Positions 4,522 to 55,456 of a stretch of 64,000 bases of DNA are shown here, in pieces; position 1 is the stretch's first letter; the number at the start of each line of letters is the position of its first letter. Below the pieces are notes generated by a model. It saw only the letters and a list, made by a program, of their open reading frames with translations, searched no databases and was not told the DNA's origin. A program made the position numbers and the translations under genes. The DNA is from an uncultured SAR86 cluster bacterium (GTDB lineage: Bacteria > Pseudomonadota > Gammaproteobacteria > Magnimaribacterales > D2472), in contig CAJIYI010000001.1 in the NCBI GenBank assembly GCA_905181595.1, positions 151,938-215,937 on the forward strand, given 5' to 3'.

Positions 4522-6937
4522 TTGTTTCTGTGAGGTGTATTCGTGTTGCAGAGGATCCAATTAGAATCTCATAGGAACCCTGTCTAATCTTCCAGCACTT
4601 GTCTTCAATGTCCCAGTAAGAGAAATTTCTTTGAGTGAGCCTGATCTCAACAGTTTTTTTATCACCAGCTCCTATCGTCTCTTTTGCAAAGCCTTGAAGG
4701 GTCTTAATTGGCTCAGCATTGTCTGAATTCTCAAAAGCAACATAACACTGTGCAACTTCTGCCCCAATTACATCCCCAATATTTGCAATCATAAATTTAC
4801 AAGATACTTCCTTGCTATCACCCATTTTAATTTCAAGATCACTATATTGAAATTGGGTATAAGAAAGACCATGACCAAATGGGAACAATGGGTCATTAGC
4901 TTTTCTGTCATACCATCTATAGCCAACTAAAAGCTTTTCGTCATAGTTCATCTGCGCATCCTTGCCTGGATAACAATCATAAGCAGGAGTATCTGCAATA
5001 TTTTTTGGAAAAGTAGTAGGCAATCTTCCAGAGGGGTTAACTTCCCCAGTGATAATATCCACCAGAGCATTTCCAAATTCTTGACCAGCAAACCATGTCT
5101 GAATAACAGCATCCGCATTATCAATCCATGTCATTTCAACAGGTGAACCGGTATTAATAACGACTGTGGTATTTTTATTGGCCTCTAAAATTGCTTTAAT
5201 TAAGGAGTCTTGATCAGCAGGTAAACTTAACTCCGCTCTATCATTGCCTTCGGTCTCCCAGTCAGAATTAGTTCCAGCAATCAATATGACCTGATCTGCA
5301 TTACCTGCAATTTCAATTGCTTCTTTAAATAAATCAACCTCATCAGGTGCTTGGCAGCCAATATATACTGCAGGAAAATTTCCTTCAAAATAATACTGCA
5401 CTTCTATGCTGTAGCTTTCGCCTTGTTGCAGATTTAGAACTCCCTTTTTTGAAGCTGAGCTAAATGTGAAAAAAGCCTCCCCTGGCTCTATATCATTCCA
5501 ATTATCAATAAGTTCCTTGCCATCAATTAATAACCGACACTGGCCAATTCCAAATATTTCAAATTCATGATCACCGGAGATCTCCGGTGTATATTTACAA
5601 GAAAACCTAACTGAAATATTAGACCTTTCTTTTTTACCAATCACCTCTTTTGCAAAACCTTCAAAAACCCAAAATTTATTTCCTATTAGATGCTCAGATA
5701 AAATTAAATTTTCTTCAAAGTTCTGCCCATCAAAGTACTCAACTAAAAATCCTTTTTTATCACTTGTAAGCTCCTCATTAATTTTTGGGAGGTATTTATG
5801 GGTATGACATCCTTTCGCATACTCGATTTTTATTTCTCCAGGAAGCCTAGCTTTAAAAGCTTCTAGAGGCTGCACTTGATAATGCGGCATAAGACTTGCA
5901 CTGCCTCCACCTATGATTTGAGCATTTTTTGCATTTGGTCCAATCACTGCTAATTTTTTAATATTCTTTTTAAGCGGTAAAAGTCCTTCATTTTTTAAAA
6001 GCACCATGCCATCTGCAGCAGCTTTTCTTAATAGTTTTCGATGTGATGGCTGATCAATTGCTTCTTCTGGCCTGAATCCGGGTCTTTCAAAACGTTTAGA
6101 GAACTCAGCGACGGTTAGTATTCTTTTAACCTTGTCATCAATAAGCTCTTCATCTACTTTTCCATCTTTGATGGAGTTGATCAAGCTAGCACCCCAGACA
6201 TTTCCTGGACCTGGCATCTCAAGATCAAGACCACCATTAGCATTTTCTTCAGTTTCCAGTGCAGCACCCCAATCACTTACCACATATCCATCAAATCCCC
6301 ATTCTTCTTTTAATATGTCGATCAACAATTCTTGATGTGAGCTGCAATAAATATTATTTAGTTTGTTGTAGGCGCTCATCACAACTTTTGCATTACCTTG
6401 CTTAATGCCCATCTCAAAAGGCAATAAATATATTTCTCGAAGAGTTCTCTCATCAATGTTTGAGCTAATTGCGTGCCTATTAAACTCTGTGTCATTGCCA
6501 ACAAAATGCTTTAAGCAGGCTGCAACATTCTTGGATTGCACTCCATTCACATATTGAACCGCAATTTTGCCACTCAAAAATGGATCTTCAGAAAAGCTCT
6601 CAAAATGTCTACCGCCAAGAGGATGTCTATGAATATTAATAGTTGGCCCAAGCAATACATCCACATCCTTTGCATTTGCCTCTTCTCCCAAGGCCTCTCC
6701 AAGTTGATTAATTAATTCCAGATCCCATGTCGAACCTATTGAAATAGCACAAGGGAAACAGGCAGAAGATTTCCCAGAATTTGAATCACCTCTGATTCCA
6801 TTTGGACCATCTGACATCTTAATGCTTGGAACATTTGCATGGTCAATCTTATTTGTGTACCAAGAATTAAACCCACTAAGCAGCGAGACTTTTTCCTCTA
6901 AAGTAAGCTGGGAAACTATTTGATCTATATCTGTCAT
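4478..6937 (-). CDS. GH3 beta-glucosidase with an internal PA14-like domain, no signal peptide
   Basis: 819 aa with GH3 motifs LKHFVGND and the VVSDWGA nucleophile. A PA14-like insert (FLVEYFDGQNF...IEVQYYFEG, about nt 5385-5757) sits between the GH3 domains. The N-terminus MTDIDQIVSQLTLEEK is not a signal peptide. Confidence 0.9.
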   Translation of the reverse strand: MTDIDQIVSQLTLEEKVSLLSGFNSWYTNKIDHANVPSIKMSDGPNGIRGDSNSGKSSACFPCAISIGSTWDLELINQLGEALGEEANAKDVDVLLGPTINIHRHPLGGRHFESFSEDPFLSGKIAVQYVNGVQSKNVAACLKHFVGNDTEFNRHAISSNIDERTLREIYLLPFEMGIKQGNAKVVMSAYNKLNNIYCSSHQELLIDILKEEWGFDGYVVSDWGAALETEENANGGLDLEMPGPGNVWGASLINSIKDGKVDEELIDDKVKRILTVAEFSKRFERPGFRPEEAIDQPSHRKLLRKAAADGMVLLKNEGLLPLKKNIKKLAVIGPNAKNAQIIGGGSASLMPHYQVQPLEAFKARLPGEIKIEYAKGCHTHKYLPKINEELTSDKKGFLVEYFDGQNFEENLILSEHLIGNKFWVFEGFAKEVIGKKERSNISVRFSCKYTPEISGDHEFEIFGIGQCRLLIDGKELIDNWNDIEPGEAFFTFSSASKKGVLNLQQGESYSIEVQYYFEGNFPAVYIGCQAPDEVDLFKEAIEIAGNADQVILIAGTNSDWETEGNDRAELSLPADQDSLIKAILEANKNTTVVINTGSPVEMTWIDNADAVIQTWFAGQEFGNALVDIITGEVNPSGRLPTTFPKNIADTPAYDCYPGKDAQMNYDEKLLVGYRWYDRKANDPLFPFGHGLSYTQFQYSDLEIKMGDSKEVSCKFMIANIGDVIGAEVAQCYVAFENSDNAEPIKTLQGFAKETIGAGDKKTVEIRLTQRNFSYWDIEDKCWKIRQGSYEILIGSSATRIHLTETISLEQVQEVLGPLV

Positions 6938-6978
6938 AGGTTAATCTTAAATCCTTTAATAATAAAAACACACTTTTT

Positions 6979-7692
6979 ATGTCGGTAGAATTTATTGTTT
7001 TTTTTGCAATCCTATCTTTTCTTACCTCTCTGCTTACTTCTATATTTAGTGTTGGTGGAGGCTTAATCATGCTGGTTGCACTAGCGCAGTCATTTTCTCC
7101 AGCTACTCTAATTCCATTGCATGGATCCATTCAGCTTGCTAATAACTTCTCTCGTACGCTTGTTTACAGAGAGTTTGTTCAATGGGAGCTAATTAAGCAT
7201 ATTGTAATTTCTACAATGTTTGGCGCCCTAGTTGGAATTTTTTTATTTGGAACGCTTTCAGAAAACTTATTACTTATTTTAATAGCCAGTACCATTCTCT
7301 TTCTTACGTGGGCGCCGATAGATAATTTCATTCTCTCAGTAATGAAAAATGATTGGTTTTGCGGTCTAATTTCAGGATTTGCAGGTATTTTTGTTGGTGC
7401 AAATGGACCGCTAGTAACAGCCTACTTAAGAACAAAAAATTTATCTCCTGAAGTTTTAGTGGCGAATCATGGAGCAATTATGATTTTTCAACATGCGATC
7501 AAAATCATCTTATTCACTTCTTTTTTTAGCTTTACTATTCAGGACTATTTCCTCTTTATTTTTATTCTTGCACTCACTGGTTATGCAGGCGCAAATTTAG
7601 GCAGAAGGCTCATCTCAAACATTTCATTTGACAGCTTCAATATTGCCTTAAAAATATTGTTAACATTTTTGTCAATATTTTTAATTATATAA
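6979..7692 (+). CDS. TauE/SafE (DUF81) family membrane exporter/permease
   Basis: 237 aa, polytopic and hydrophobic. Gly-rich helix starts (SVGGGLIM, VGANGPL) are typical of TauE/SafE. Family recalled from memory. Confidence 0.6.
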   Translation: MSVEFIVFFAILSFLTSLLTSIFSVGGGLIMLVALAQSFSPATLIPLHGSIQLANNFSRTLVYREFVQWELIKHIVISTMFGALVGIFLFGTLSENLLLILIASTILFLTWAPIDNFILSVMKNDWFCGLISGFAGIFVGANGPLVTAYLRTKNLSPEVLVANHGAIMIFQHAIKIILFTSFFSFTIQDYFLFIFILALTGYAGANLGRRLISNISFDSFNIALKILLTFLSIFLII

Positions 7693-12584: not shown

Positions 12585-13067
12585 ATGAAAATAGCAATCT
12601 ACCCTGGTTCTTTTGATCCCATTACTTTTGGCCACATAGACATTACTGAGAGAGCCTGTGCACTGTTTGACAAAGTCATAGTCAGTGTCGCTGAGAGCAA
12701 GTCTAAAAACCCGCTTTTTAGCGTTGCTGAAAGAATTGATTTGGCACAAGAGATTTTTAAAGATAATCCAAAGATTGAGGTCATAGGTTATGCCAGCAAG
12801 CTAACCGTTGATCTTGCAAGAGAGAATAATGCTATAGCTATTATCAGAGGGTTAAGGGCCGTTGCAGACTTTGAATATGAATTTCAGCTTGCAACTATGA
12901 ATCGCAGTCTTGCCCCAGATATTGAGAGCATTTTCTTTACTCCCAAGGACACTCTGATATATGTCTCCTCTAGTTTAGTCAAAGAAATTGCTAAACTTGG
13001 TGGAGATGTATCTCGCTTCGTTAGCCCGAATGTCAAAGATGCGCTTGCGGAGAAATACTCAACTTAA
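12585..13067 (+). CDS. coaD: phosphopantetheine adenylyltransferase
   Basis: MKIAIYPGSFDPITFGHIDI (nucleotidyltransferase H-x-G-H motif), about 160 aa. ATG 12585 is preferred over the TTG at 12582. Confidence 0.9.
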   Translation: MKIAIYPGSFDPITFGHIDITERACALFDKVIVSVAESKSKNPLFSVAERIDLAQEIFKDNPKIEVIGYASKLTVDLARENNAIAIIRGLRAVADFEYEFQLATMNRSLAPDIESIFFTPKDTLIYVSSSLVKEIAKLGGDVSRFVSPNVKDALAEKYST

Positions 13068-13876
13068 CTCTGGCATTTGCTGCAAAAGAAAGAAGCTCGC
13101 TGGGTCTGAACTATTCTTTGAATGATGCCTGCTTTACATCTTACGCATTCTTGACCTTCACGATCATAAGCAGATAATTCAATCTTAAAGTAACCTTGAT
13201 TGCCATCTGGTTGATAGAAATCTTTCAGCGTTGTCCCTCCAACTTCAATGGCTCTTCGAAGAATTTTTTTTGCTGACACTGCAATGTCTAAAGATTGTTT
13301 CTTGGTAATTAATTTGGATCGTTTGGTGGGGCGAATCCCAACATCAAATAGAATTTCATTGGCGTAGATGTTACCAATGCCAACCACATGGGATTGATTC
13401 ATTAGCGAGATCTTAATTGGAGAGTTAACTTTTCGCAGCCTTTTAAACAAGTACTCGCCATCAAAGTCTTCTGACAATGGTTCTGGTCCGAGTTTATCGA
13501 GTAAAAAATGATGCTGAGGGTCTGATACAAAGTGCAGCGATCCAAATCTTCGGGGATCATTATAGATGAGCTTGGCATCTTGAAAAATGAACTCAACATG
13601 ATCATGTTTTTTATAAAAGTTAGATTCTTTTTCAGCTATTCGAACTGTTCCAGTCATCCCAAGATGAAGCAATATTTGAGAGTCTTTAACATGAAATAGA
13701 ATATATTTTGCCCTTCGGCTTATTTGATCAACTGTTACGCCCTTAAGATTTTTAAATGCTTCTAGATCTACTGGCCATCTAAGATTTGGGTTGTGAATTT
13801 CTACAGATTCAAGAATCTGATTCTGAAATGTCTGTATTGCTCGAACCGAGGTTTCTACCTCAGGTAATTCTGGCAT
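13064..13876 (-). CDS. mutM: formamidopyrimidine-DNA glycosylase
   Basis: N-terminal MPELPEVET, an H2TH region and a C-terminal zinc finger CVRC...CSKC. 270 aa. Confidence 0.92.
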   Translation of the reverse strand: MPELPEVETSVRAIQTFQNQILESVEIHNPNLRWPVDLEAFKNLKGVTVDQISRRAKYILFHVKDSQILLHLGMTGTVRIAEKESNFYKKHDHVEFIFQDAKLIYNDPRRFGSLHFVSDPQHHFLLDKLGPEPLSEDFDGEYLFKRLRKVNSPIKISLMNQSHVVGIGNIYANEILFDVGIRPTKRSKLITKKQSLDIAVSAKKILRRAIEVGGTTLKDFYQPDGNQGYFKIELSAYDREGQECVRCKAGIIQRIVQTQRASFFCSKCQS

Positions 13877-15207
13877 TAACCGAGTAAGCTATTGATCTCT
13901 ATAAGATTTTCTGGACTCAGGGTACCAGCAGCAAGATGCAAGCGCAGGGTAGTGATCAGGTAGTCATACTTAGCATTGGCTAGATTTCTTTCAGCGCTGT
14001 ACAGATTTTTTTCAGCTTGCAACAGATCGACAATATTTCTTGTGCCGACTTCATAACCAACTCTAGTAGCTTCCAGGGCACTGGATGCAGATACCACAGC
14101 TTGCTTTTGAGCTCTAAGATTTGCTACCAATGTCACAACATTAGAATACTGACTTCGCACATCCTGTATAACGCTTCTCTCAGCAAACAGAGCATCTTCT
14201 GATGATTTGTTTGATTCAGCATAAGCTTGCTTGGTTCTTGAGATCACAGCTCCACCTTGAAAGATAGGCATGGAGAGTTGAAGGCTGTAAGTGTCTCTCT
14301 GAGTTTCATCAGGCACGGTAATATTAAAAGCACCACCAGTATTCAGGCCATCATATGCATATTGATTAGTTTCTGATTCAGTTTGCGCACCAACAATATC
14401 AACTTTAGGTAAATGATTTGAAGCAACACTGCGAGCATTGTTTTTTGATGCATATTTTCTTAAATTAGCTGCTTTTAACCTAAAGTTATTTTCCACCGCT
14501 TTTCTTGCCCACTCCTCTTTAGAGGCTGGCACTGGATTGGTAACACTCAGGTCATTCACTAGTCCATCAAGAGATAAAATTTCCTTCCCAACAAGTGCAT
14601 TTAAGGCTTCCTGAGCTGTGAATACAGTCCCTTCAATCCTAATTCTTGAGGCCATGCTCAGATCAAATGCTAATTGAGCTTCTTGAACTTCGGTAACCGC
14701 AGAAAGACCTACCTCATAGCGTTGGCTGCTTTGATCTAACTGTTTCTTGATTGCTTTCTCTTCTGATCGCGCTGCATTTAAGTTATCGATAGCTCTTAGA
14801 ACATTGAAATAGAGCTCAGCAGTTCTAACAATTAATGCCTGTTGAGAGTATGCAAAATCTGCTTCAGCTGCATCTGTTAAAAATTTTGATTGACGATATT
14901 TAAACCAGCTATCTAGCCTTAGGAGTGGCTGAGTGAGCCGGGCAGAAGTATTAAAGTTATTGTATTGATTTTGAAGGTTTCCATTTTGATAGTATTCATT
15001 CCAATTAGTCTGAGCATTTAGGGTAATGCTTGGCAAAAGAGCTGCTCGTCCCTGTACTTTAATTTCCTTTCCAGATAAATAAGAATATTCCGCAGACTTG
15101 TATTGAGGATCATTCTCCAAGGCATCATTGTAAATATCTAATAGGCTATCAGCGAACGCAGAGATACTAAAGAAAGCAGCGAGTGTAATTAAAAATTTTG
15201 ATTTCAT
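13876..15207 (-). CDS. tolC: TolC-family outer-membrane efflux channel
   Basis: 443 aa. Signal peptide MKSKFLITLAAFFSISAFA followed by the TolC start LLDIYNDALENDPQY and two internal repeats. Confidence 0.85.
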   Translation of the reverse strand: MKSKFLITLAAFFSISAFADSLLDIYNDALENDPQYKSAEYSYLSGKEIKVQGRAALLPSITLNAQTNWNEYYQNGNLQNQYNNFNTSARLTQPLLRLDSWFKYRQSKFLTDAAEADFAYSQQALIVRTAELYFNVLRAIDNLNAARSEEKAIKKQLDQSSQRYEVGLSAVTEVQEAQLAFDLSMASRIRIEGTVFTAQEALNALVGKEILSLDGLVNDLSVTNPVPASKEEWARKAVENNFRLKAANLRKYASKNNARSVASNHLPKVDIVGAQTESETNQYAYDGLNTGGAFNITVPDETQRDTYSLQLSMPIFQGGAVISRTKQAYAESNKSSEDALFAERSVIQDVRSQYSNVVTLVANLRAQKQAVVSASSALEATRVGYEVGTRNIVDLLQAEKNLYSAERNLANAKYDYLITTLRLHLAAGTLSPENLIEINSLLG

Positions 15208-15218
15208 AATATATCTGA

Positions 15219-15237
15219 ATGTTTACAGTGTTAACAT
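15219..15237. promoter_or_regulatory. 19-bp palindromic operator-like site (third copy of the tetR/efflux operator)
   Basis: ATGTTTACAGTGTTAACAT matches ATGTTGACACTGTTAACAT (51328-51346) at 17 of 19 positions. One difference is the asymmetric centre base. It lies 12 nt upstream of the tolC ATG. Confidence 0.5.
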
Positions 15238-15265
15238 TAAACCTCTTAAGGGGTAGCTATGTCAA
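15236..15265 (-). promoter_or_regulatory. candidate sigma70 promoter of tolC
   Basis: Minus strand reads TTGACA (15265-15260), an 18-nt spacer, then TTTAAT (15241-15236). The -10 overlaps the operator-like palindrome by 2 nt. Confidence 0.4.
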
Positions 15266-15388
15266 TGAGAGTATTTTAATACATTGCTAAAAAATCTCCT
15301 AAATTAATACATTTGTTTGTATTTAGTTAGAGTAGAATATGACGTAAAAGTTCATCAAGCTTTAGCGAAACATTTACAGGAAAGTTAA

Positions 15389-17278
15389 TTGGCAAAAGAT
15401 TACGACTCCCAATCGATAGAGGTTCTATCTGGCCTCGATCCGGTGCGAAAAAGACCGGGCATGTACACAGACACAACATCTCCAAATCATCTTATTCAAG
15501 AGGTAGTTGATAATTCTATAGACGAAGCTTTGGCAGGGCATTGTTCAAGTATCAAGGTTACTTTGGCTAAAGACGGCATCATATCGGTGGGCGATGATGG
15601 TCGTGGTATGCCAACTGACATTCATCCAGAGCATAAAGTTTCTGGTGTTGAATTGATCATGTGCAAACTTCATGCTGGCGCCAAATTCTCAGGCGAAGAC
15701 TACAATTTTTCTGGAGGCTTGCATGGTGTTGGCGTTTCAGTAGTGAATGCGTTATCTCAAAAATTATTGGTAGAAATTAAACGTTCTGGGAAGCAATTTG
15801 AGATGGCTTTTGAAGGCGGCGACAAAAAGTCTGAGCTCACGGAGGTTGGAGAGGTTGGAGCCAGAAATTCTGGAACGATCATAAACTTTCAACCGGATCC
15901 ACAATACTTTGAAACTGTAACTGTTAATACAGATAGCCTTAAACATCTCTTAAAAGCTAAGGCTGTTTTATGCCCCGGTCTAACCATTCAATATGCCGAT
16001 GAGAAAAAACAAGAAAAAATTTCTTGGACTTATGAGAATGGATTAATTTCCTATCTATCTGAATCTTCTGAAGGCATCGATTTACTTTTAGAAGAATCAA
16101 TATCTTGCAGCAAACTTGCAAAAGATAATGCGCTTGATTTTGTTTTGAACTGGTCTACTCAACCGGTAAAAAATCTGATGAGCGAATCATATGTGAATTT
16201 AATTCCAACTGCCCAAGGAGGCTCTCACTTAAATGGTTTTAAGGCTGGGTTATTGGATGCAGTTAAGGAGTTCTGTGAGTTTAGGAATCTAATCCCTAAG
16301 GGATTAAAAATTACTGCTGATGATGTTATTCAGCACAGCACTTTTATTGTTTCATCTAAGCTAACCAATCCTCAATTTGCTGGCCAAACTAAGGAGAGAC
16401 TCGATTCTAAAGATCATCAAGGCTTTGTGAGCTCTACCACCAAAGATGTTCTTAGTATTTGGTTCAACCAGCATACCGAAGAAGGAGAGAAGCTCGCAGA
16501 ATTGGCCATTGCTTCTGCACAAGCCCGGACAAGAGAAACAAAAGTTGTGGACAGGAAAAAGACTTTTCAGGGCCCAGCGTTACCGGGTAAATTATCTGAC
16601 TGCAACAGCACAAATCTTGATGAGACAGAATTATTTTTTGTGGAAGGAGATTCTGCTGGAGGATCTGCGAAGCAATCTAGAGAGAGAAAATTTCAGGCAA
16701 TCATGCCCTTAAGAGGAAAAATCCTTAATACCTGGGATCTTGAGAGCAGTGAAATTATTAAATCCATTGAAATTAAAGACATCTCAACTGCAATAGGAGT
16801 TAATCCGGGCAGCCCTGATATCTCTTCATTAAGATATGGAAAAGTTTGCATTTTAGCTGATGCTGACTCTGATGGTCTGCACATCGCCACCTTGCTTTGT
16901 GCGCTTTTTTTGAGGCATTACAAGCCATTAGTTCTTGCAGGTCATATTTATGTGGCCATGCCTCCACTGTTTCGAATTGATTGTGCTAAAGAAGTTTTTT
17001 ATGCGCTTGATGAAGAAGAAAAAGATTCAATTGTTAAGAAGCTAAAATCAAAACCAGGAAAACCAAAAATTGATATTCAGCGATTCAAAGGTTTGGGTGA
17101 GATGAACCCATCACAACTTAGGGAGACAGTCATGGATCCAAAAACAAGAAGGCTAGTGCAGCTAACAGTCACAGCATCTGATAATGTAAATAGCATGATG
17201 GATTTACTGCTATCAAAAAAGAATGCTGGCGCTCGAAAAGAGTGGCTTGAAAAACGAGGAAAAATTGTCTCAGTTTAA
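15389..17278 (+). CDS. parE: DNA topoisomerase IV subunit B
   Basis: TTG start preceded by AGGAAAG. Type IIA B-subunit motifs [24 protein letters not shown] and PLRGKILN. At 629 aa it lacks the GyrB-specific insert and sits directly upstream of parC. Confidence 0.9.
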
Positions 17279-50713: not shown

Positions 50714-51313
50714 TTAGAATTCAAGCGCTGAAATTAAAAAACTTCTAAGATCGCTTTTAACTAACCCCATGGCATTTCCAGCTTTTGTATCAATTTCTGA
50801 CTCAGCGAGAGAATCATTTCTTAGCAAGCCAACCAAGCCGTGCACCAGCGCCCAATAATGAATACATTTTATGTCTAAGTCTTTTGCTGATATGCCAGGA
50901 TTTAATTCAGCCAATACACAAACCAATTCCTCAAAAGCACCAACGGCACTGTTTAATAACTCTGGGAATTGAGTTTTATCAATTACTGGACTGTGCATCA
51001 AATCATAGGTATTTCTTTTTGATAACCCAAACTCAATGTAGGTTTGCCCCATTTCTAAAAACCTATCTCTTGTGGACAATGTTTTTTTCGCGTTAGCATT
51101 TTGTAAAATTTCTTTTAATTCCGTAAATCCCCGTGTAGATACTTCAGCCAATAAAGATTCTTTGGTTTTAAAATGTCTGTAGGGAGCGGTTTGGGATACC
51201 TTAGCTTCCTTTGCAATTGATCTAAGGCTCATACGATCATGACCATCAGCCTCGCATACAATGCAAGCGCTTGAAATAAGCTCTTCTTTTAGGTTTCCAT
51301 GATGATATTTCAC
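50714..51313 (-). CDS. TetR/AcrR-family transcriptional repressor
   Basis: GTG start 51313 preceded by AGGA. N-terminal HTH is MSLRSIAKEAKVSQTAPYRHFKTKESLL. 199 aa. Divergent from the MFP-RND genes. Confidence 0.85.
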   Translation of the reverse strand: MKYHHGNLKEELISSACIVCEADGHDRMSLRSIAKEAKVSQTAPYRHFKTKESLLAEVSTRGFTELKEILQNANAKKTLSTRDRFLEMGQTYIEFGLSKRNTYDLMHSPVIDKTQFPELLNSAVGAFEELVCVLAELNPGISAKDLDIKCIHYWALVHGLVGLLRNDSLAESEIDTKAGNAMGLVKSDLRSFLISALEF

Positions 51314-51327
51314 TTTTTATTCATCCT

Positions 51328-51373
51328 ATGTTGACACTGTTAACATGTTTATGTATGTTGACACTGATAACAT
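51328..51373. promoter_or_regulatory. two tandem 19-bp palindromic operators (candidate TetR binding sites)
   Basis: ATGTTGACACTGTTAACAT (51328-51346) and ATGTTGACACTGATAACAT (51355-51373), 18/19 identical and 27 bp apart start to start. Arm consensus is ATGTTnACA. Confidence 0.6.
51331..51359 (+). promoter_or_regulatory. candidate sigma70 promoter of the MFP-RND operon
   Basis: -35 TTGACA (51331-51336, inside operator 1), a 17-nt spacer, then -10 TATGTT (51354-51359, overlapping operator 2). Confidence 0.45.
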
Positions 51374-51402: not shown

Positions 51403-52398
51403 ATGAAAAAAATAGTATTCACCATAGCTCTTTCTATTTACCTGCCTTTATTATCAGGTGAGAGCTCATCGCTAGAGATTACGACTATCGAGATGCAAGA
51501 CTCCTACCAATCTTTGAAAAGATTTCCAGGCAAGATTCTTCCCCTAAATTATTCCAAACTATCTTTTGAGATTCCTGGAAAAATATCACAGGTCACAGTT
51601 GATATTGGCGATGCTGTTGAAGTTGATCAAATCTTAGCCTTTTTGGATCCAGCTGAAATGCAAGCAAATCTAAATCAGGCCTCAGCCAGATATAATTTAG
51701 CCTCACAAGCTTTGACTAGATTTCAGGACTTAAAAGATAAAGGTTTTATTTCTAATCAAGAGTTAGATAAAGCCAACTCAGAATATTTAGTGGCCAAGGC
51801 ACAAGCTGATCTTTACAGAGTCAAATTAGAACAGACAAAAATACGTGCTCCTTTCTCAGGATTCATTCAAAATAGATTTCTAGATTCAGGCACAGTAGTC
51901 AGCCCTGGTATTCCAATTATAGAGATTATTGACTCCACAAGTGTTGAGGCGCATGTGTCTATTCCGGGCAGCATTATTGAGAGCCTTGAGATTGGCAGTC
52001 AATATAATTTTGCTATCAATGAGAAGATGTATCCCGCCACCTTGAAGCGTTTTTCTCAGATGACTAGCCAAGGCTCTAATAATAGACTGTGCATCTTTGA
52101 GTTTGAAACATTTATCAATCCTGGCTCTGTTTCTTATTTGGAGCTGCAGCAGACCAGGAGGAAGGAAGGTGCTTGGATTCCATTAAAAGCTTTATCACAG
52201 GGCACCCAGGGCTTATGGAATTTATTCACAGTGACCAAAGATGTCAATGGCCAATATGTGGTTGCTAAGCAAATTGTTGAAATGATTCACATAGAAAGAA
52301 ATGCTGCCTATGTTAATGGCACGATTGCTAATGGCGATATGGTAGCTTCAGGTGGTGCTGCTAAAGTTATTGATAGCGAAATTCTAAGAGCCCAATAA
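51403..52398 (+). CDS. RND efflux periplasmic adaptor (membrane fusion protein)
   Basis: Start at ATG 51403 (MKKIVFTIALSIYLPLL signal/anchor). HlyD-like lipoyl, coiled-coil and beta-barrel pattern. The ORF-track ATG 51328 lies inside the operator. Confidence 0.85.
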   Translation: MKKIVFTIALSIYLPLLSGESSSLEITTIEMQDSYQSLKRFPGKILPLNYSKLSFEIPGKISQVTVDIGDAVEVDQILAFLDPAEMQANLNQASARYNLASQALTRFQDLKDKGFISNQELDKANSEYLVAKAQADLYRVKLEQTKIRAPFSGFIQNRFLDSGTVVSPGIPIIEIIDSTSVEAHVSIPGSIIESLEIGSQYNFAINEKMYPATLKRFSQMTSQGSNNRLCIFEFETFINPGSVSYLELQQTRRKEGAWIPLKALSQGTQGLWNLFTVTKDVNGQYVVAKQIVEMIHIERNAAYVNGTIANGDMVASGGAAKVIDSEILRAQ

Positions 52399-52402
52399 GC
52401 AC

Positions 52403-55400
52403 ATGTTTTTCTTGAGAGTTCTTTTTGATAGGCCGAGAATATTTGCTCTGTTGTTGGCATTTATTTTTTTATCTGGAATTTTTTCCTTAAATACTATTTC
52501 TAGGCAAGAGAATCCTGAGCTTGCTGAGAGGTGGGCGAGTATCCAAACTGTATATCCAGGAGCTTCTCCTAACAGAATAGAGACGCAAGTTTTAGAGCCC
52601 TTAGAAGCAAAGTTAAGAGAGGTTTATGAATTAGATGAAATCAGATCTTTTTCTCAGCAGGGTTTTGCCACTACTGTTATGGCAATCAAAGATGAAGTTG
52701 CAGCAGGCCCTCTCATTGAGCAGGTTTGGTCCCAAGTTCAGGATAAATTAGATCAATCAAGCTTTCTTCTGCCACCAGGAATCGAGCCTCAGCTTCAAAG
52801 AAGTAGCGGCCCTCCAACGACGTTGCTCTATGCCTTAACCTGGAATGGAAGGGGGGATGTGCCACTCATCTTGCTATCCAGAGTCGCTGAAGATTTGCGT
52901 CAGTCCCTTGCATTCATGGGAGGCTCAGATAGAAGTTTTGTTTTTGGTGGCGCTGATGAGGAGGTGTTGGTAGAAATAGACAATTCTAAGCTTTCAGCCC
53001 TAGGGCTGGGTTTTCAGGAAATTGCACAAATACTATCATCCTTGGATTCTAAGAAGCCTATTGGGCAGATTTCTCAGGGCGGACAAGAGGTTCTAGTTAA
53101 GTCCAAAGAAAATCTTACAAGTTTAGATCAAGTTTCTGGCCTGCCTATTAAAGTCATTAACGAGTTTGAGATTATTCGTTTGGGAGATATCGCCACGATT
53201 TCAAAAAATCCACGCAATCCCCCGGAAGAGCTCACCTTATATCAAGGCAAGCCAGCAGTCTTGGTTGAAATTAGAGGTGCTTTTAATCAAAGAGTAGATT
53301 CTTATGTTAATAGTATTTCTAATGTGGTTGAGAGCTTTAAATCTGAATTGCCTCCAGAAATTACCATTGATACAGTCTACGACGAATCCTACTATTTCAA
53401 AGAAAAATTCAATAACTTATATTCAAGCATTATCTTTGCAACCCTCATTGTTGTTGCAATTAGCTATTTTTTACTTGGTTTCAAGTCCGCCTTGATTGTT
53501 GGTTCTGTAATACCTTTAACAATTTTTTTAGTTTTACTTGGGTGCAAATTGTTAGATCTACCGTTGCATCAAACCTCCATGACTGGAATTATTATTGCGC
53601 TAGGGCTGTTAATCGATAATGCAATTATTGTTGTCGAAGATTATAAATATAGGCGACGCTTGGGGCATGATTTACAAGAGGCTGCCTTTGAAAGTGTGCA
53701 TCATCTATGGGTGCCATTGGCAGCTGCAACGGCAACCACTGCTCTAGCATTTTTTCCTATTGCTACCGGCGCCGGCCCTAGTGCTGAGTTTGTTGGTGGA
53801 ATGGCTAAGACTGTTATTTTATCGATCACATCATCACTTTTTCTTGCTTTATTTGTTGTTCCCATTCTTCTTACTTACATGGAGAAAATTAAATTTTTTG
53901 ATCAGGAGCGATATTCTGGAACTGGGTATTCCAATGCAAAGCTCTTGCAGAGATACAAGGATCTATTAACTTGGTCCTATGCCGTTCCAAGACGAGCCAT
54001 CATGATCTCTCTGGCTCTGCCATTGTTGGGATTTCTTATGTTCCCCTTTTTAAAAGCTGATTTTTTCCCTGAGCTTGATAGAAACATGTTCAAGGTATTC
54101 ATTGAGCTTCCACAAAATTCCAATGTCAGAACCACAGAAAAAAGAGTTAAAGAAATCAGGAAGTCCATTGCTCAAAGTGAAATAGCTGGGGACGATTTCT
54201 GGTTTATTGGAAGAAAACTGCCTAGAATTTTGTACAATGTGATAGGCGGTGATTCTGGTTTGGGAAGCAATAATATAGCTCAAGGTGTTTATTTTGCTCC
54301 ATCCTACAAGGAGATGAAGGCTTCATTGCCAGGCCTTGCAAGACGGCTCAATCAAGAGAATCCAGATTTAAAAATTATCATAGATAAGTTTACCTCCGGA
54401 CCACCGGTGGACGCTGCAGTTGAATTTAGTATCGATGGACCTGATATTGCTATTCTCAAAATCCTTGGAAAAAAACTAGAATTAATTTTTCGAGAGTCGC
54501 CAGATGTATATTTAACTGACAGCGGGCTGTCCTCAAACTCAAAGAATCTTGTGTTTAACTTCGATGAATCCGCCCTCATGCTGAACTCTGTTCCAGGCGA
54601 GTATTTTACTAATGAGCTTGCGATCGCTAGTCAGGGCTTTGAAGTAGGAACAATGCTGGATGGAAATAAAGAGCTACCAATAAAGATTAGAGGGATGTCA
54701 GATGATTTCATGGAATCGATTCAGTTTCTTTCAAGGCCCTCACAGGATGGCTTTGATTACTCTTCGAGTTATGGAGAGTTTGAGGTTACGAATCAATCTA
54801 ATTTGATAGCAAGAGATGCTGGCAAGAGAGAAAATAGTGTGTCAGCTTGGATTTGGCCTGGGCTCCTGCCATCAGATACAGAGAAATTTATTGCAGCAAA
54901 AATTGAAAAATTTAAAGCCGAGCTACCACCTGGCTATATTCTGGAGGCTGGGGGTGAGGCTGATGCAAGAGGTCAGTCACAAGCAAATATTTTCTCATCA
55001 GCTATTCTATTTTTTGTGCTTATTGTTATTGCATTAGTTGCAGCGCTGAATTCATTTAGGCAGGCAGGGTTAATTTTAAGCGTTGGAATATGGTGTACCG
55101 GCCTAGCATTTATGGGTTTGACCCTCGGGCAAGCAAATTTTGGTTTTATTGGGTTGGTGGGTGCTATCGGCTTAACAGGACTATCAATCAATGATTCGAT
55201 TGTTGTTCTATCTCATATTAAAGAATCCAATGCGAATTCTCCAATCACCAAAGAGACTCTGGTGGATGTTGTCATACGCTCCACCCGTCACGTCATTACC
55301 ACTTCTGCAACTACGATTGGAGGTTTCTTGCCTCTGCTTTTAACTAGTGTATTTTTTCAACCTTTGGCTTGGGCAATGGCGGGTGGAATTATTGGCTCGG

Positions 55401-55456
55401 CTATCATTGCACTATTTTATATCCCTGCCTGTTATGCTATTTCCAAAAAATTATAA
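52403..55456 (+). CDS. RND (AcrB/AcrD/AcrF superfamily) inner-membrane efflux transporter
   Basis: 1017 aa with 12-TM topology and two large periplasmic loops. Conserved TM4-type segment GLLIDNAIIVVE. Confidence 0.9.
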   Translation: MFFLRVLFDRPRIFALLLAFIFLSGIFSLNTISRQENPELAERWASIQTVYPGASPNRIETQVLEPLEAKLREVYELDEIRSFSQQGFATTVMAIKDEVAAGPLIEQVWSQVQDKLDQSSFLLPPGIEPQLQRSSGPPTTLLYALTWNGRGDVPLILLSRVAEDLRQSLAFMGGSDRSFVFGGADEEVLVEIDNSKLSALGLGFQEIAQILSSLDSKKPIGQISQGGQEVLVKSKENLTSLDQVSGLPIKVINEFEIIRLGDIATISKNPRNPPEELTLYQGKPAVLVEIRGAFNQRVDSYVNSISNVVESFKSELPPEITIDTVYDESYYFKEKFNNLYSSIIFATLIVVAISYFLLGFKSALIVGSVIPLTIFLVLLGCKLLDLPLHQTSMTGIIIALGLLIDNAIIVVEDYKYRRRLGHDLQEAAFESVHHLWVPLAAATATTALAFFPIATGAGPSAEFVGGMAKTVILSITSSLFLALFVVPILLTYMEKIKFFDQERYSGTGYSNAKLLQRYKDLLTWSYAVPRRAIMISLALPLLGFLMFPFLKADFFPELDRNMFKVFIELPQNSNVRTTEKRVKEIRKSIAQSEIAGDDFWFIGRKLPRILYNVIGGDSGLGSNNIAQGVYFAPSYKEMKASLPGLARRLNQENPDLKIIIDKFTSGPPVDAAVEFSIDGPDIAILKILGKKLELIFRESPDVYLTDSGLSSNSKNLVFNFDESALMLNSVPGEYFTNELAIASQGFEVGTMLDGNKELPIKIRGMSDDFMESIQFLSRPSQDGFDYSSSYGEFEVTNQSNLIARDAGKRENSVSAWIWPGLLPSDTEKFIAAKIEKFKAELPPGYILEAGGEADARGQSQANIFSSAILFFVLIVIALVAALNSFRQAGLILSVGIWCTGLAFMGLTLGQANFGFIGLVGAIGLTGLSINDSIVVLSHIKESNANSPITKETLVDVVIRSTRHVITTSATTIGGFLPLLLTSVFFQPLAWAMAGGIIGSAIIALFYIPACYAISKKL

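Follow-up and report, generated by a model that had tools for sequence, protein, structure and literature searches.

A TetR-family operator predicted at the unlinked tolC promoter of SAR86 bacteria and the split RND efflux pump that it may co-regulate

The DNA analysed here, referred to below as the window, is a 64,000-nucleotide stretch from an uncultured SAR86 cluster bacterium with a GC content of 37-40%. Two groups of genes are considered, a tolC-fpg pair and a tetR gene divergent from an adaptor-RND operon, which lie ~36 kb apart. The gene assignments and the model scores on which they rest were as follows.

13064..13876, minus strand: fpg (mutM); NF002211, 305 bits (cutoff 212)
13876..15207, minus strand: tolC, outer-membrane channel of the TolC family, 443 aa; TIGR01844, 300 bits (cutoff 225); PF02321 in two stretches
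50714..51313, minus strand: tetR, TetR/AcrR-family regulator, 199 aa, GTG start; PF00440, 37.2 bits (cutoff 24, residues 13-58); PF13305 (TetR_C_33), 31.9 bits (cutoff 26.8)
51403..52398, plus strand: RND periplasmic adaptor (MFP); TIGR01730, 148 bits (cutoff 94.9)
52403..55456, plus strand: RND inner-membrane transporter, 1017 aa; PF00873, 361 bits
55484..55753, plus strand: DUF1543 ORF right after the RND gene; PF07566, 23.2 bits against a cutoff of 22.9

The tolC product scored below the E. coli TolC equivalog model NF007002 (330 bits against a cutoff of 495) and is a TolC-family channel, not an E. coli TolC equivalog. The ATG of fpg overlaps the tolC stop codon (TAATG, window 13874-13878), and because of this overlap fpg is probably co-transcribed with tolC and hence co-repressed. 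The genes parE and parC are divergent from tolC, starting at 15389. At the other locus, the adaptor and RND genes are separated by 4 nt, and the RND protein scored below the NCBIfam models RND_permease_1 and RND_permease_2 (275 and 210 bits, respectively, against cutoffs of 1250); it is a divergent transporter outside the multidrug RND permease subfamilies tested. The original prediction held that this operon carries no outer-membrane factor of its own, and the next ORF after the RND gene indeed encodes a DUF1543 protein, which is syntenic in a second locus (L133) at 87% identity and is possibly the last gene of the operon. No second TolC, TetR, MFP or RND gene was found in the 64-kb window.

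The regulator has the features of the TetR/AcrR family: a TetR_N helix-turn-helix, a C-terminal TetR_C_33 domain (~200 aa in all) and palindromes in its own divergent promoter region. An identical copy of the protein is present on 213 contigs. The solved structures nearest to it are TetR-family proteins, the nearest by sequence being PDB 3on2 (E 9e-17, residues 2-164); this entry bears the generic name of probable transcriptional regulator and returned no operator or ligand, and no function was transferred from it.

Three palindromes and two promoter-like arrangements were located in the window.

15219..15237, no strand: tolC-proximal operator ATGTTTACAGTGTTAACAT, a 19-bp palindrome with an unpaired centre base
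15236..15241, minus strand: -10 hexamer TTTAAT of the tolC promoter, 18 nt from the -35; T[C/T]TAAT conserved
15260..15265, minus strand: TTGACA, the -35 hexamer of the tolC promoter; unchanged between the window and all of its 25 closest relatives
51328..51346, no strand: first operator O1, ATGTTGACACTGTTAACAT, 14 nt upstream of the tetR start codon; contains the MFP-RND -35; kept in relatives
51331..51359, plus strand: promoter-like site of MFP-RND, TTGACA, 17 nt, TATGTT; consensus match only, 10/12
51355..51373, no strand: second operator O2, ATGTTGACACTGATAACAT, overlapping the -10/start region of the MFP-RND promoter; kept in relatives

Both O1 and O2 lie within the 89-bp spacer between tetR and the adaptor gene, with their centres 27 bp apart; the TTGACA of the MFP-RND promoter is inside O1 and its TATGTT overlaps O2. 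On re-reading of the window, the coordinates and sequence first given for the tolC site proved right, and 11 nt separate it from the tolC ATG (15207, minus strand). The site and O1 differ in 2 of their 19 positions, including the centre base, in agreement with the 17/19 match and non-symmetric centre difference originally described, and the site differs from O2 at 3 positions. When up to 3 mismatches were allowed, three sites were found in the whole window, namely the tolC site and the two tetR-MFP operators, and the claim that the window holds no further full copy was upheld. Counted on both strands these give 6 matches, against 0.02 expected from dinucleotide-preserving shuffles of the window. 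The core motif used for comparisons was ATGT-N3-CA-N-TG-N3-ACAT; searching with the relaxed core ATGTNNNCANTGNNNACAT at up to one mismatch returned the same three window sites, with 0.01 expected exact and 0.25 expected with one mismatch. The rough judgement that such a match was unlikely by chance is thus borne out, at 0.01-0.02 expected by shuffles or core statistics.

The first two bases of the tolC operator are the last two of the -10 hexamer TTTAAT. All elements of the tolC promoter as originally drawn, TTGACA (15265-15260), N18 and TTTAAT (15241-15236), are present; its description as near-consensus was too generous, the -10 being weaker than described. This hexamer has no A at position 2, where that base is normally invariant, and was for that reason missed by the consensus scan. 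Given the missing A and the 18-nt spacer, the assigned tolC promoter and start site are predictions, and on these predictions an operator lying over the -10 and the start in the window's lineage would be in the position of a repressor. The tolC promoter listed by the scan, TTAACA (15234-15229), 17 nt, TATTAT, was discarded, its -10 overlapping the ATG. There is no recognisable Shine-Dalgarno sequence before tolC (window 15208-15218). Farther upstream, two conserved blocks lie between tolC and parE (window 15285-15345), which read AGGAGATTTTTT and TATTCTACTCTAAC on the tolC strand; the latter, read on the parE strand, contains TAGAAT, probably the parE -10.

For comparison across SAR86, tolC and 4 kb on either side of it were taken from 80 species-level genomes, almost all of which bear the title SAR86 cluster; their TolC proteins are 66-92% identical to that of the window, which places the window in this marine gammaproteobacterial clade. 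In 74 of the 80 species the core was present no more than 150 nt upstream of tolC (68 exact, 6 with one mismatch), and the other ~700 kb of the 80 loci contained a single one-mismatch match to it. The site is therefore kept at orthologous tolC promoters, as the original prediction had proposed to check, and the suspicion that 17/19 matches might be common background is contradicted by their absence elsewhere in the window and by that lone match in ~700 kb. The tolC operator is lost or degraded in the remaining 6 species: one (L037) has one half-site only, and a subclade of five (L065, L074, L077, L078 and L080) has the degenerate sequence ATATTGACACAGATAGCAT upstream of tolC. In close relatives of the window the distal half-site of the tolC operator is degenerate (ATGTGTGCA). 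Divergent parE and tolC-fpg synteny was found in 78 of the 80 loci, which are those whose contigs reach far enough; an fpg homologue was likewise found in 78, always on the tolC strand, and this repair glycosylase gene is tied to the efflux channel gene throughout SAR86. The 4 kb on either side of tolC contained no TetR, MFP or RND gene in any of the 80 species.

The intergenic DNA around the site is largely unalignable between subclades, and the placement of the operator within it differs. TTGACA-N18-T(C/T)TAAT is kept in the window and in 24 of its 25 closest relatives, the sequence of the spacer drifting freely, and in this group the operator begins at the last two -10 bases and ends 8-16 nt before the ATG. 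In a second subclade (including L029, L031 and L051) a conserved -10 of the form GGTTAAAAT or GGTTAGAAT follows the operator at a distance of 9-11 nt, so that the operator covers the -35/spacer region, and in a third the operator is followed by ~50 nt more of conserved sequence. Across SAR86 the distance from operator to tolC ATG ranges from 8 to 51 nt. That the site was kept while the surrounding promoter was rebuilt between subclades indicates that the site itself is under selection. Fixed letters are found in the outer ATGT/ACAT and at the inner CA/TG; complementarity is not maintained between the N3 blocks (for instance, GTG against TAA in L004), a pattern that fits protein contacts rather than a hairpin. 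On this sequence evidence the tolC site is real, specific and under selection.

Two further observations were made in the tolC upstream regions. In the L029-L079 subclade a conserved TAAAAT/TAGAAT -10 ends 0-10 nt before the tolC ATG, from which a leaderless or nearly leaderless tolC mRNA would result. A second short palindrome, GTAAAGT(T/G)(T/A)AC, is present in 30 of the 80 regions and often abuts the -35 TTGACA (L002, L004-L020 and L023-L024, where it is ~64-77 nt upstream of tolC; L026-L034 and L049; L065 and L074-L080). It sits on a 24-nt insertion, which the window does not have, and is made of the operator's TGTAAA/TTTACA words in the opposite arrangement.

The association of the palindrome with this particular TetR was followed at the tetR locus and in metagenomes. 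The tetR and MFP-RND unit is syntenic across SAR86, with hemC, an rsmD-like methyltransferase, flavin reductase and DUF4399 beside tetR. Loci in which TetR identity to the window protein is 87%, 79% and 69% have these same neighbours and hemD, with two operators 8-12 nt apart between tetR and the adaptor gene, and low-GC metagenome contigs with a protein identity of just 41-56% retain both gene order and operators, the operators being kept down to 41% TetR identity. Two operators are present in most lineages examined, and the lineage of L162 and L230 has one full operator and a half-site. In locus L133 (4380-5103) the TetR is 49% identical to that of the window, the adaptor 83% and the RND protein 88%, with the DNA-binding head nearly unchanged and both operators kept; by these identities divergence is much faster in the ligand-binding domain of the TetR than in the pump. 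At its tolC locus (L025), the complete SAR86 genome CP097973.1 has the site ATGTTTACAGCGTCAACAT, and a TetR of the L162 cluster was found on a contig of 1,325,892 bp, matched to CP097973.1 by its identical length, the tetR locus of this exact protein having ATGTTAACACTGTTAACAT and a half-site; by this match one complete genome bears both the tolC site and an L162-cluster TetR.

A metagenome collection was scanned for ATGTTNACANTGTNAACAT, which matched at least 120 loci, the matches listed being a sample in unknown order. In 47 among the 120 matches listed, the start of a gene for a homologue of the window TetR (25-51% identity) is no more than 300 nt away from the site; these contigs range from 33 to 71% GC, and 7 of them have an adaptor-RND pair on the other side. 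When 22 of the 47 TetRs were aligned, the DNA-reading region YHHgnL...VSxxAxYRHF was at least 80% conserved. An AT-rich palindrome beside the same TetR subfamily in high-GC DNA is hard to explain except as the operator of that subfamily. The scan also matched at least four SAR86 tolC promoters. At least 12 other loci have a perfect palindrome ATGTTAACA(C/G)TGTTAACAT typically 7-8 nt upstream of an 81-aa winged-helix gene, which is followed by a 104-aa HTH gene, with a ~125-aa gene divergent and no TetR nearby (L111, L120, L126, L136, L146, L153, L170, L173, L178, L180, L187 and L188).

Taken with the conservation at tolC and the low background, the association with TetR supports the proposal with which the work began, that one repressor may co-regulate a split tripartite pump. 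We consider it probable, with good confidence, that the repressor of the TetR family encoded at 50714-51313 uses the palindrome at 15219-15237 as a functional operator. A TetR dimer would bind the tolC site, covering the last two -10 bases and the predicted transcription start, and so hinder RNA polymerase, with less transcription of tolC and of the overlapping fpg. The same TetR would occupy O1 and O2, covering the -35 and the -10/start region of the MFP-RND promoter and probably the tetR promoter also. A ligand, probably a pump substrate, accommodated in the C-terminal domain would release the protein from all sites, whereupon adaptor, RND transporter and TolC channel would rise together, and fpg with tolC; the three parts of the pump would thus probably be switched on in concert by one repressor. 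Binding, the direction of regulation and the inducer are deduced here from sequence. The presence of one tolC operator, with a degenerate distal half in close relatives, against two at the pump suggests that repression of tolC is weaker or leakier than that of the pump operon, as might be expected for a channel that other exporters also use. We infer that the MFP-RND pump uses the TolC of the window from the lack of an outer-membrane gene in the operon, the lack of a second TolC in the window, the shared operator and general knowledge of RND pumps.

Other readings of the tolC palindrome were weighed against this one. It could be a real regulatory site bound by some other factor, be it a paralogue of TetR or a protein unrelated to it, as regulators were surveyed within 64 kb of this genome and in short flanks of others, and a perfect palindrome ATGTTAACASTGTTAACAT occurs 7 nt upstream of a winged-helix and HTH gene pair, with no TetR nearby, in ~11 among the 120 matches listed, so that other protein families may use the same sequence. 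That cassette was found in contigs of 46-61% GC, not in SAR86, and looks like a different system with the same sequence, whereas in SAR86-like low-GC syntenic contigs the orthologue of the window TetR was the sole regulator found beside the palindrome. With TetR adjacent in 47 among the 120 matches listed, and with a reading head conserved in the 22 aligned proteins, we regard another factor as unlikely. We also think it quite unlikely that TetR acts at tolC as an activator or anti-repressor, at least in the subclades where the site is upstream of the -10. The argument for it comes from the subclade including L029, L031 and L051, in which no -35 is recognisable and a protein bound 9-11 nt upstream of the GGTTAAAAT/GGTTAGAAT -10 could recruit polymerase; a protein over the -35 region blocks polymerase too, however, and in the window's group the site has the classic occlusion position over the -10 and predicted start. 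At a further gene, AurF-like and described below, a TACAAT/TATAAT -10 precedes the site by 3-6 nt, and repression is by far the commonest mode of action in the TetR family.

The remaining readings do without a regulator. Each half-site contains a -35-like hexamer (TTGACA, TTTACA or TTAACA), and the consensus scan pairs TTAACA (15234-15229) with TATTAT and the TTGACA of O1 with TATGTT, so the palindrome might be a core-promoter feature of back-to-back hexamers and not an operator. Against this, the TATTAT overlaps the tolC ATG and no tolC mRNA could arise from it, the outer ATGT/ACAT and the CA/TG are the most conserved letters and the middle of the hexamer (N3) varies freely, and a promoter element would not be expected to associate strongly, across GC contents, with one TetR subfamily; a core-promoter feature is very improbable. 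An RNA hairpin in the tolC 5' leader could be drawn, as the palindrome would be transcribed if the start lies inside it, but the hairpin is short, its folding energies were no better than those of shuffled sequence (z -0.5 to -0.8), Rfam gave no significant match (the best a meaningless snoRNA, E 0.16) and the N3 blocks showed no covariation. A functionless chance match, the other form of this reading, is excluded by the window statistics and the low background in ~700 kb, and hairpin or chance together are extremely improbable. The preferred reading therefore remains that of an operator for the window's own TetR.

Matches to the same palindrome were found upstream of two further kinds of gene, represented by the following loci.

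L161:6405-6423: operator upstream of the AurF-like ORF 6440-7546
L141:5879-5897 and L141:5922-5940: two operators upstream of the PAN-domain ORF 5558-5848

The AurF-like gene has an operator 3-6 nt after its -10, before a Shine-Dalgarno sequence and ATG, in at least 7 loci (L114, L147, L161, L199, L208, L216 and L224). It encodes a 368-aa ferritin-fold diiron protein, and a beta-helix (NosD-like) gene overlaps its end. NCBI protein names assign the AurF-like protein and a CobT neighbour to a SAR86 cluster bacterium, and the gene is likely an extra member of the predicted regulon. Its Shine-Dalgarno sequence is AGGAG or GGGAG, unlike tolC of the same clade. The PAN-domain gene has two tandem operators 19-27 nt apart upstream of it in at least 8 loci (L121, L138, L141, L149, L186, L203, L215 and L223) and encodes a ~96-aa protein with a signal-peptide-like N-terminus, with a patatin-like lipase gene downstream and rhodanese and GMC-oxidoreductase genes upstream. 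These contigs are marine, of 32-37% GC and not shown to be SAR86, and the gene is probably a regulon member. Comparison of the PAN-domain and AurF-like loci with the window and with the tolC and tetR loci by tblastx revealed no shared regions. The predicted regulon is thus wider than the split pump, with fpg, the AurF-like gene and the PAN-domain gene added to it. More tentatively, and leaning somewhat against it at present, we put forward the TetR as a possible master switch of a clade-wide SAR86 regulon comprising the RND pump, TolC and Fpg, the AurF-like diiron oxygenase with the beta-helix protein, and probably the secreted PAN-domain protein encoded beside the patatin-like lipase gene; if true, a set of this kind would hint at a response to some lipid-derived or oxidising toxicant. 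A defined stress response would be indicated by the added predicted targets (fpg, diiron oxygenase and PAN-domain protein). With a fast-evolving ligand domain joined to an unchanged reading head, SAR86 ecotypes may sense different inducers through the same DNA switch.

SAR86 is among the most abundant bacterial groups of the surface ocean. It was called uncultivated in its founding genome paper (PMC3358033), and gene regulation in an uncultivated group is mostly readable only from its DNA. Here, in nearly all SAR86 species, one operator motif connects a repressor with an outer-membrane channel encoded at an unlinked locus, and the resulting wiring diagram offers a testable account of how a very small genome may coordinate the three parts of an efflux pump. 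The motif and reading head extend well outside SAR86, making them usable for annotation of regulons in metagenomes; as a pair, occurring in contigs of 33-71% GC, they could predict regulons from such data directly. In the literature searched, nothing was found on a SAR86 TetR/efflux regulon or TetR-tolC link, and nothing directly relevant on TetR repressors acting on an unlinked tolC.

The proposed mechanism is a standard TetR repressor/operator arrangement and is not mechanistically surprising; its likenesses are to several known systems. In Tn10, two tandem 19-bp palindromes with an unpaired centre, tetO1 and tetO2, occupy the region between the divergent genes for repressor and efflux protein, overlapping the promoters of both, and a ligand induces release. 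The SAR86 tetR-MFP layout of two odd-centred 19-bp palindromes is alike, and ligand release is predicted here as well. Tn10 TetR controls its own locus only, whereas in SAR86 further putative operators stand at unlinked genes (tolC-fpg and the AurF-like gene), with the PAN-domain gene in marine contigs; the window TetR also differs in its C-terminal domain, which is of the TetR_C_33 type, and its similarity to TetR is low (E 1.6e-4). In TtgR/ttgABC, CmeR/cmeABC and MtrR/mtrCDE one repressor governs all three pump parts by operon linkage, and MtrR and CmeR have distal targets too; in SAR86, by contrast, co-regulation would be achieved through a copied operator 36 kb away. In the smeRo-pcm-tolCsm locus of Stenotrophomonas maltophilia, a TetR-type regulator encoded beside tolC controls tolC. 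The SAR86 regulator is instead beside the pump, and the 4-kb flanks of tolC are free of TetR genes in all 80 species. E. coli AcrR/acrAB/tolC is alike in having a TetR-family repressor divergent from an adaptor-RND operon lacking a gene for the outer-membrane factor, with TolC encoded elsewhere and shared. There, coordination of tolC with acrAB has been attributed to the activators MarA, SoxS and Rob at the marbox, and to EvgA, PhoP and others, not to the local repressor (PMC11762307). SAR86 differs from the E. coli acr system in that the predicted operator of the local repressor is itself duplicated at tolC, and the operator sequences differ; where E. coli relies on global activators, SAR86 appears to have copied the operator of its local repressor to tolC.
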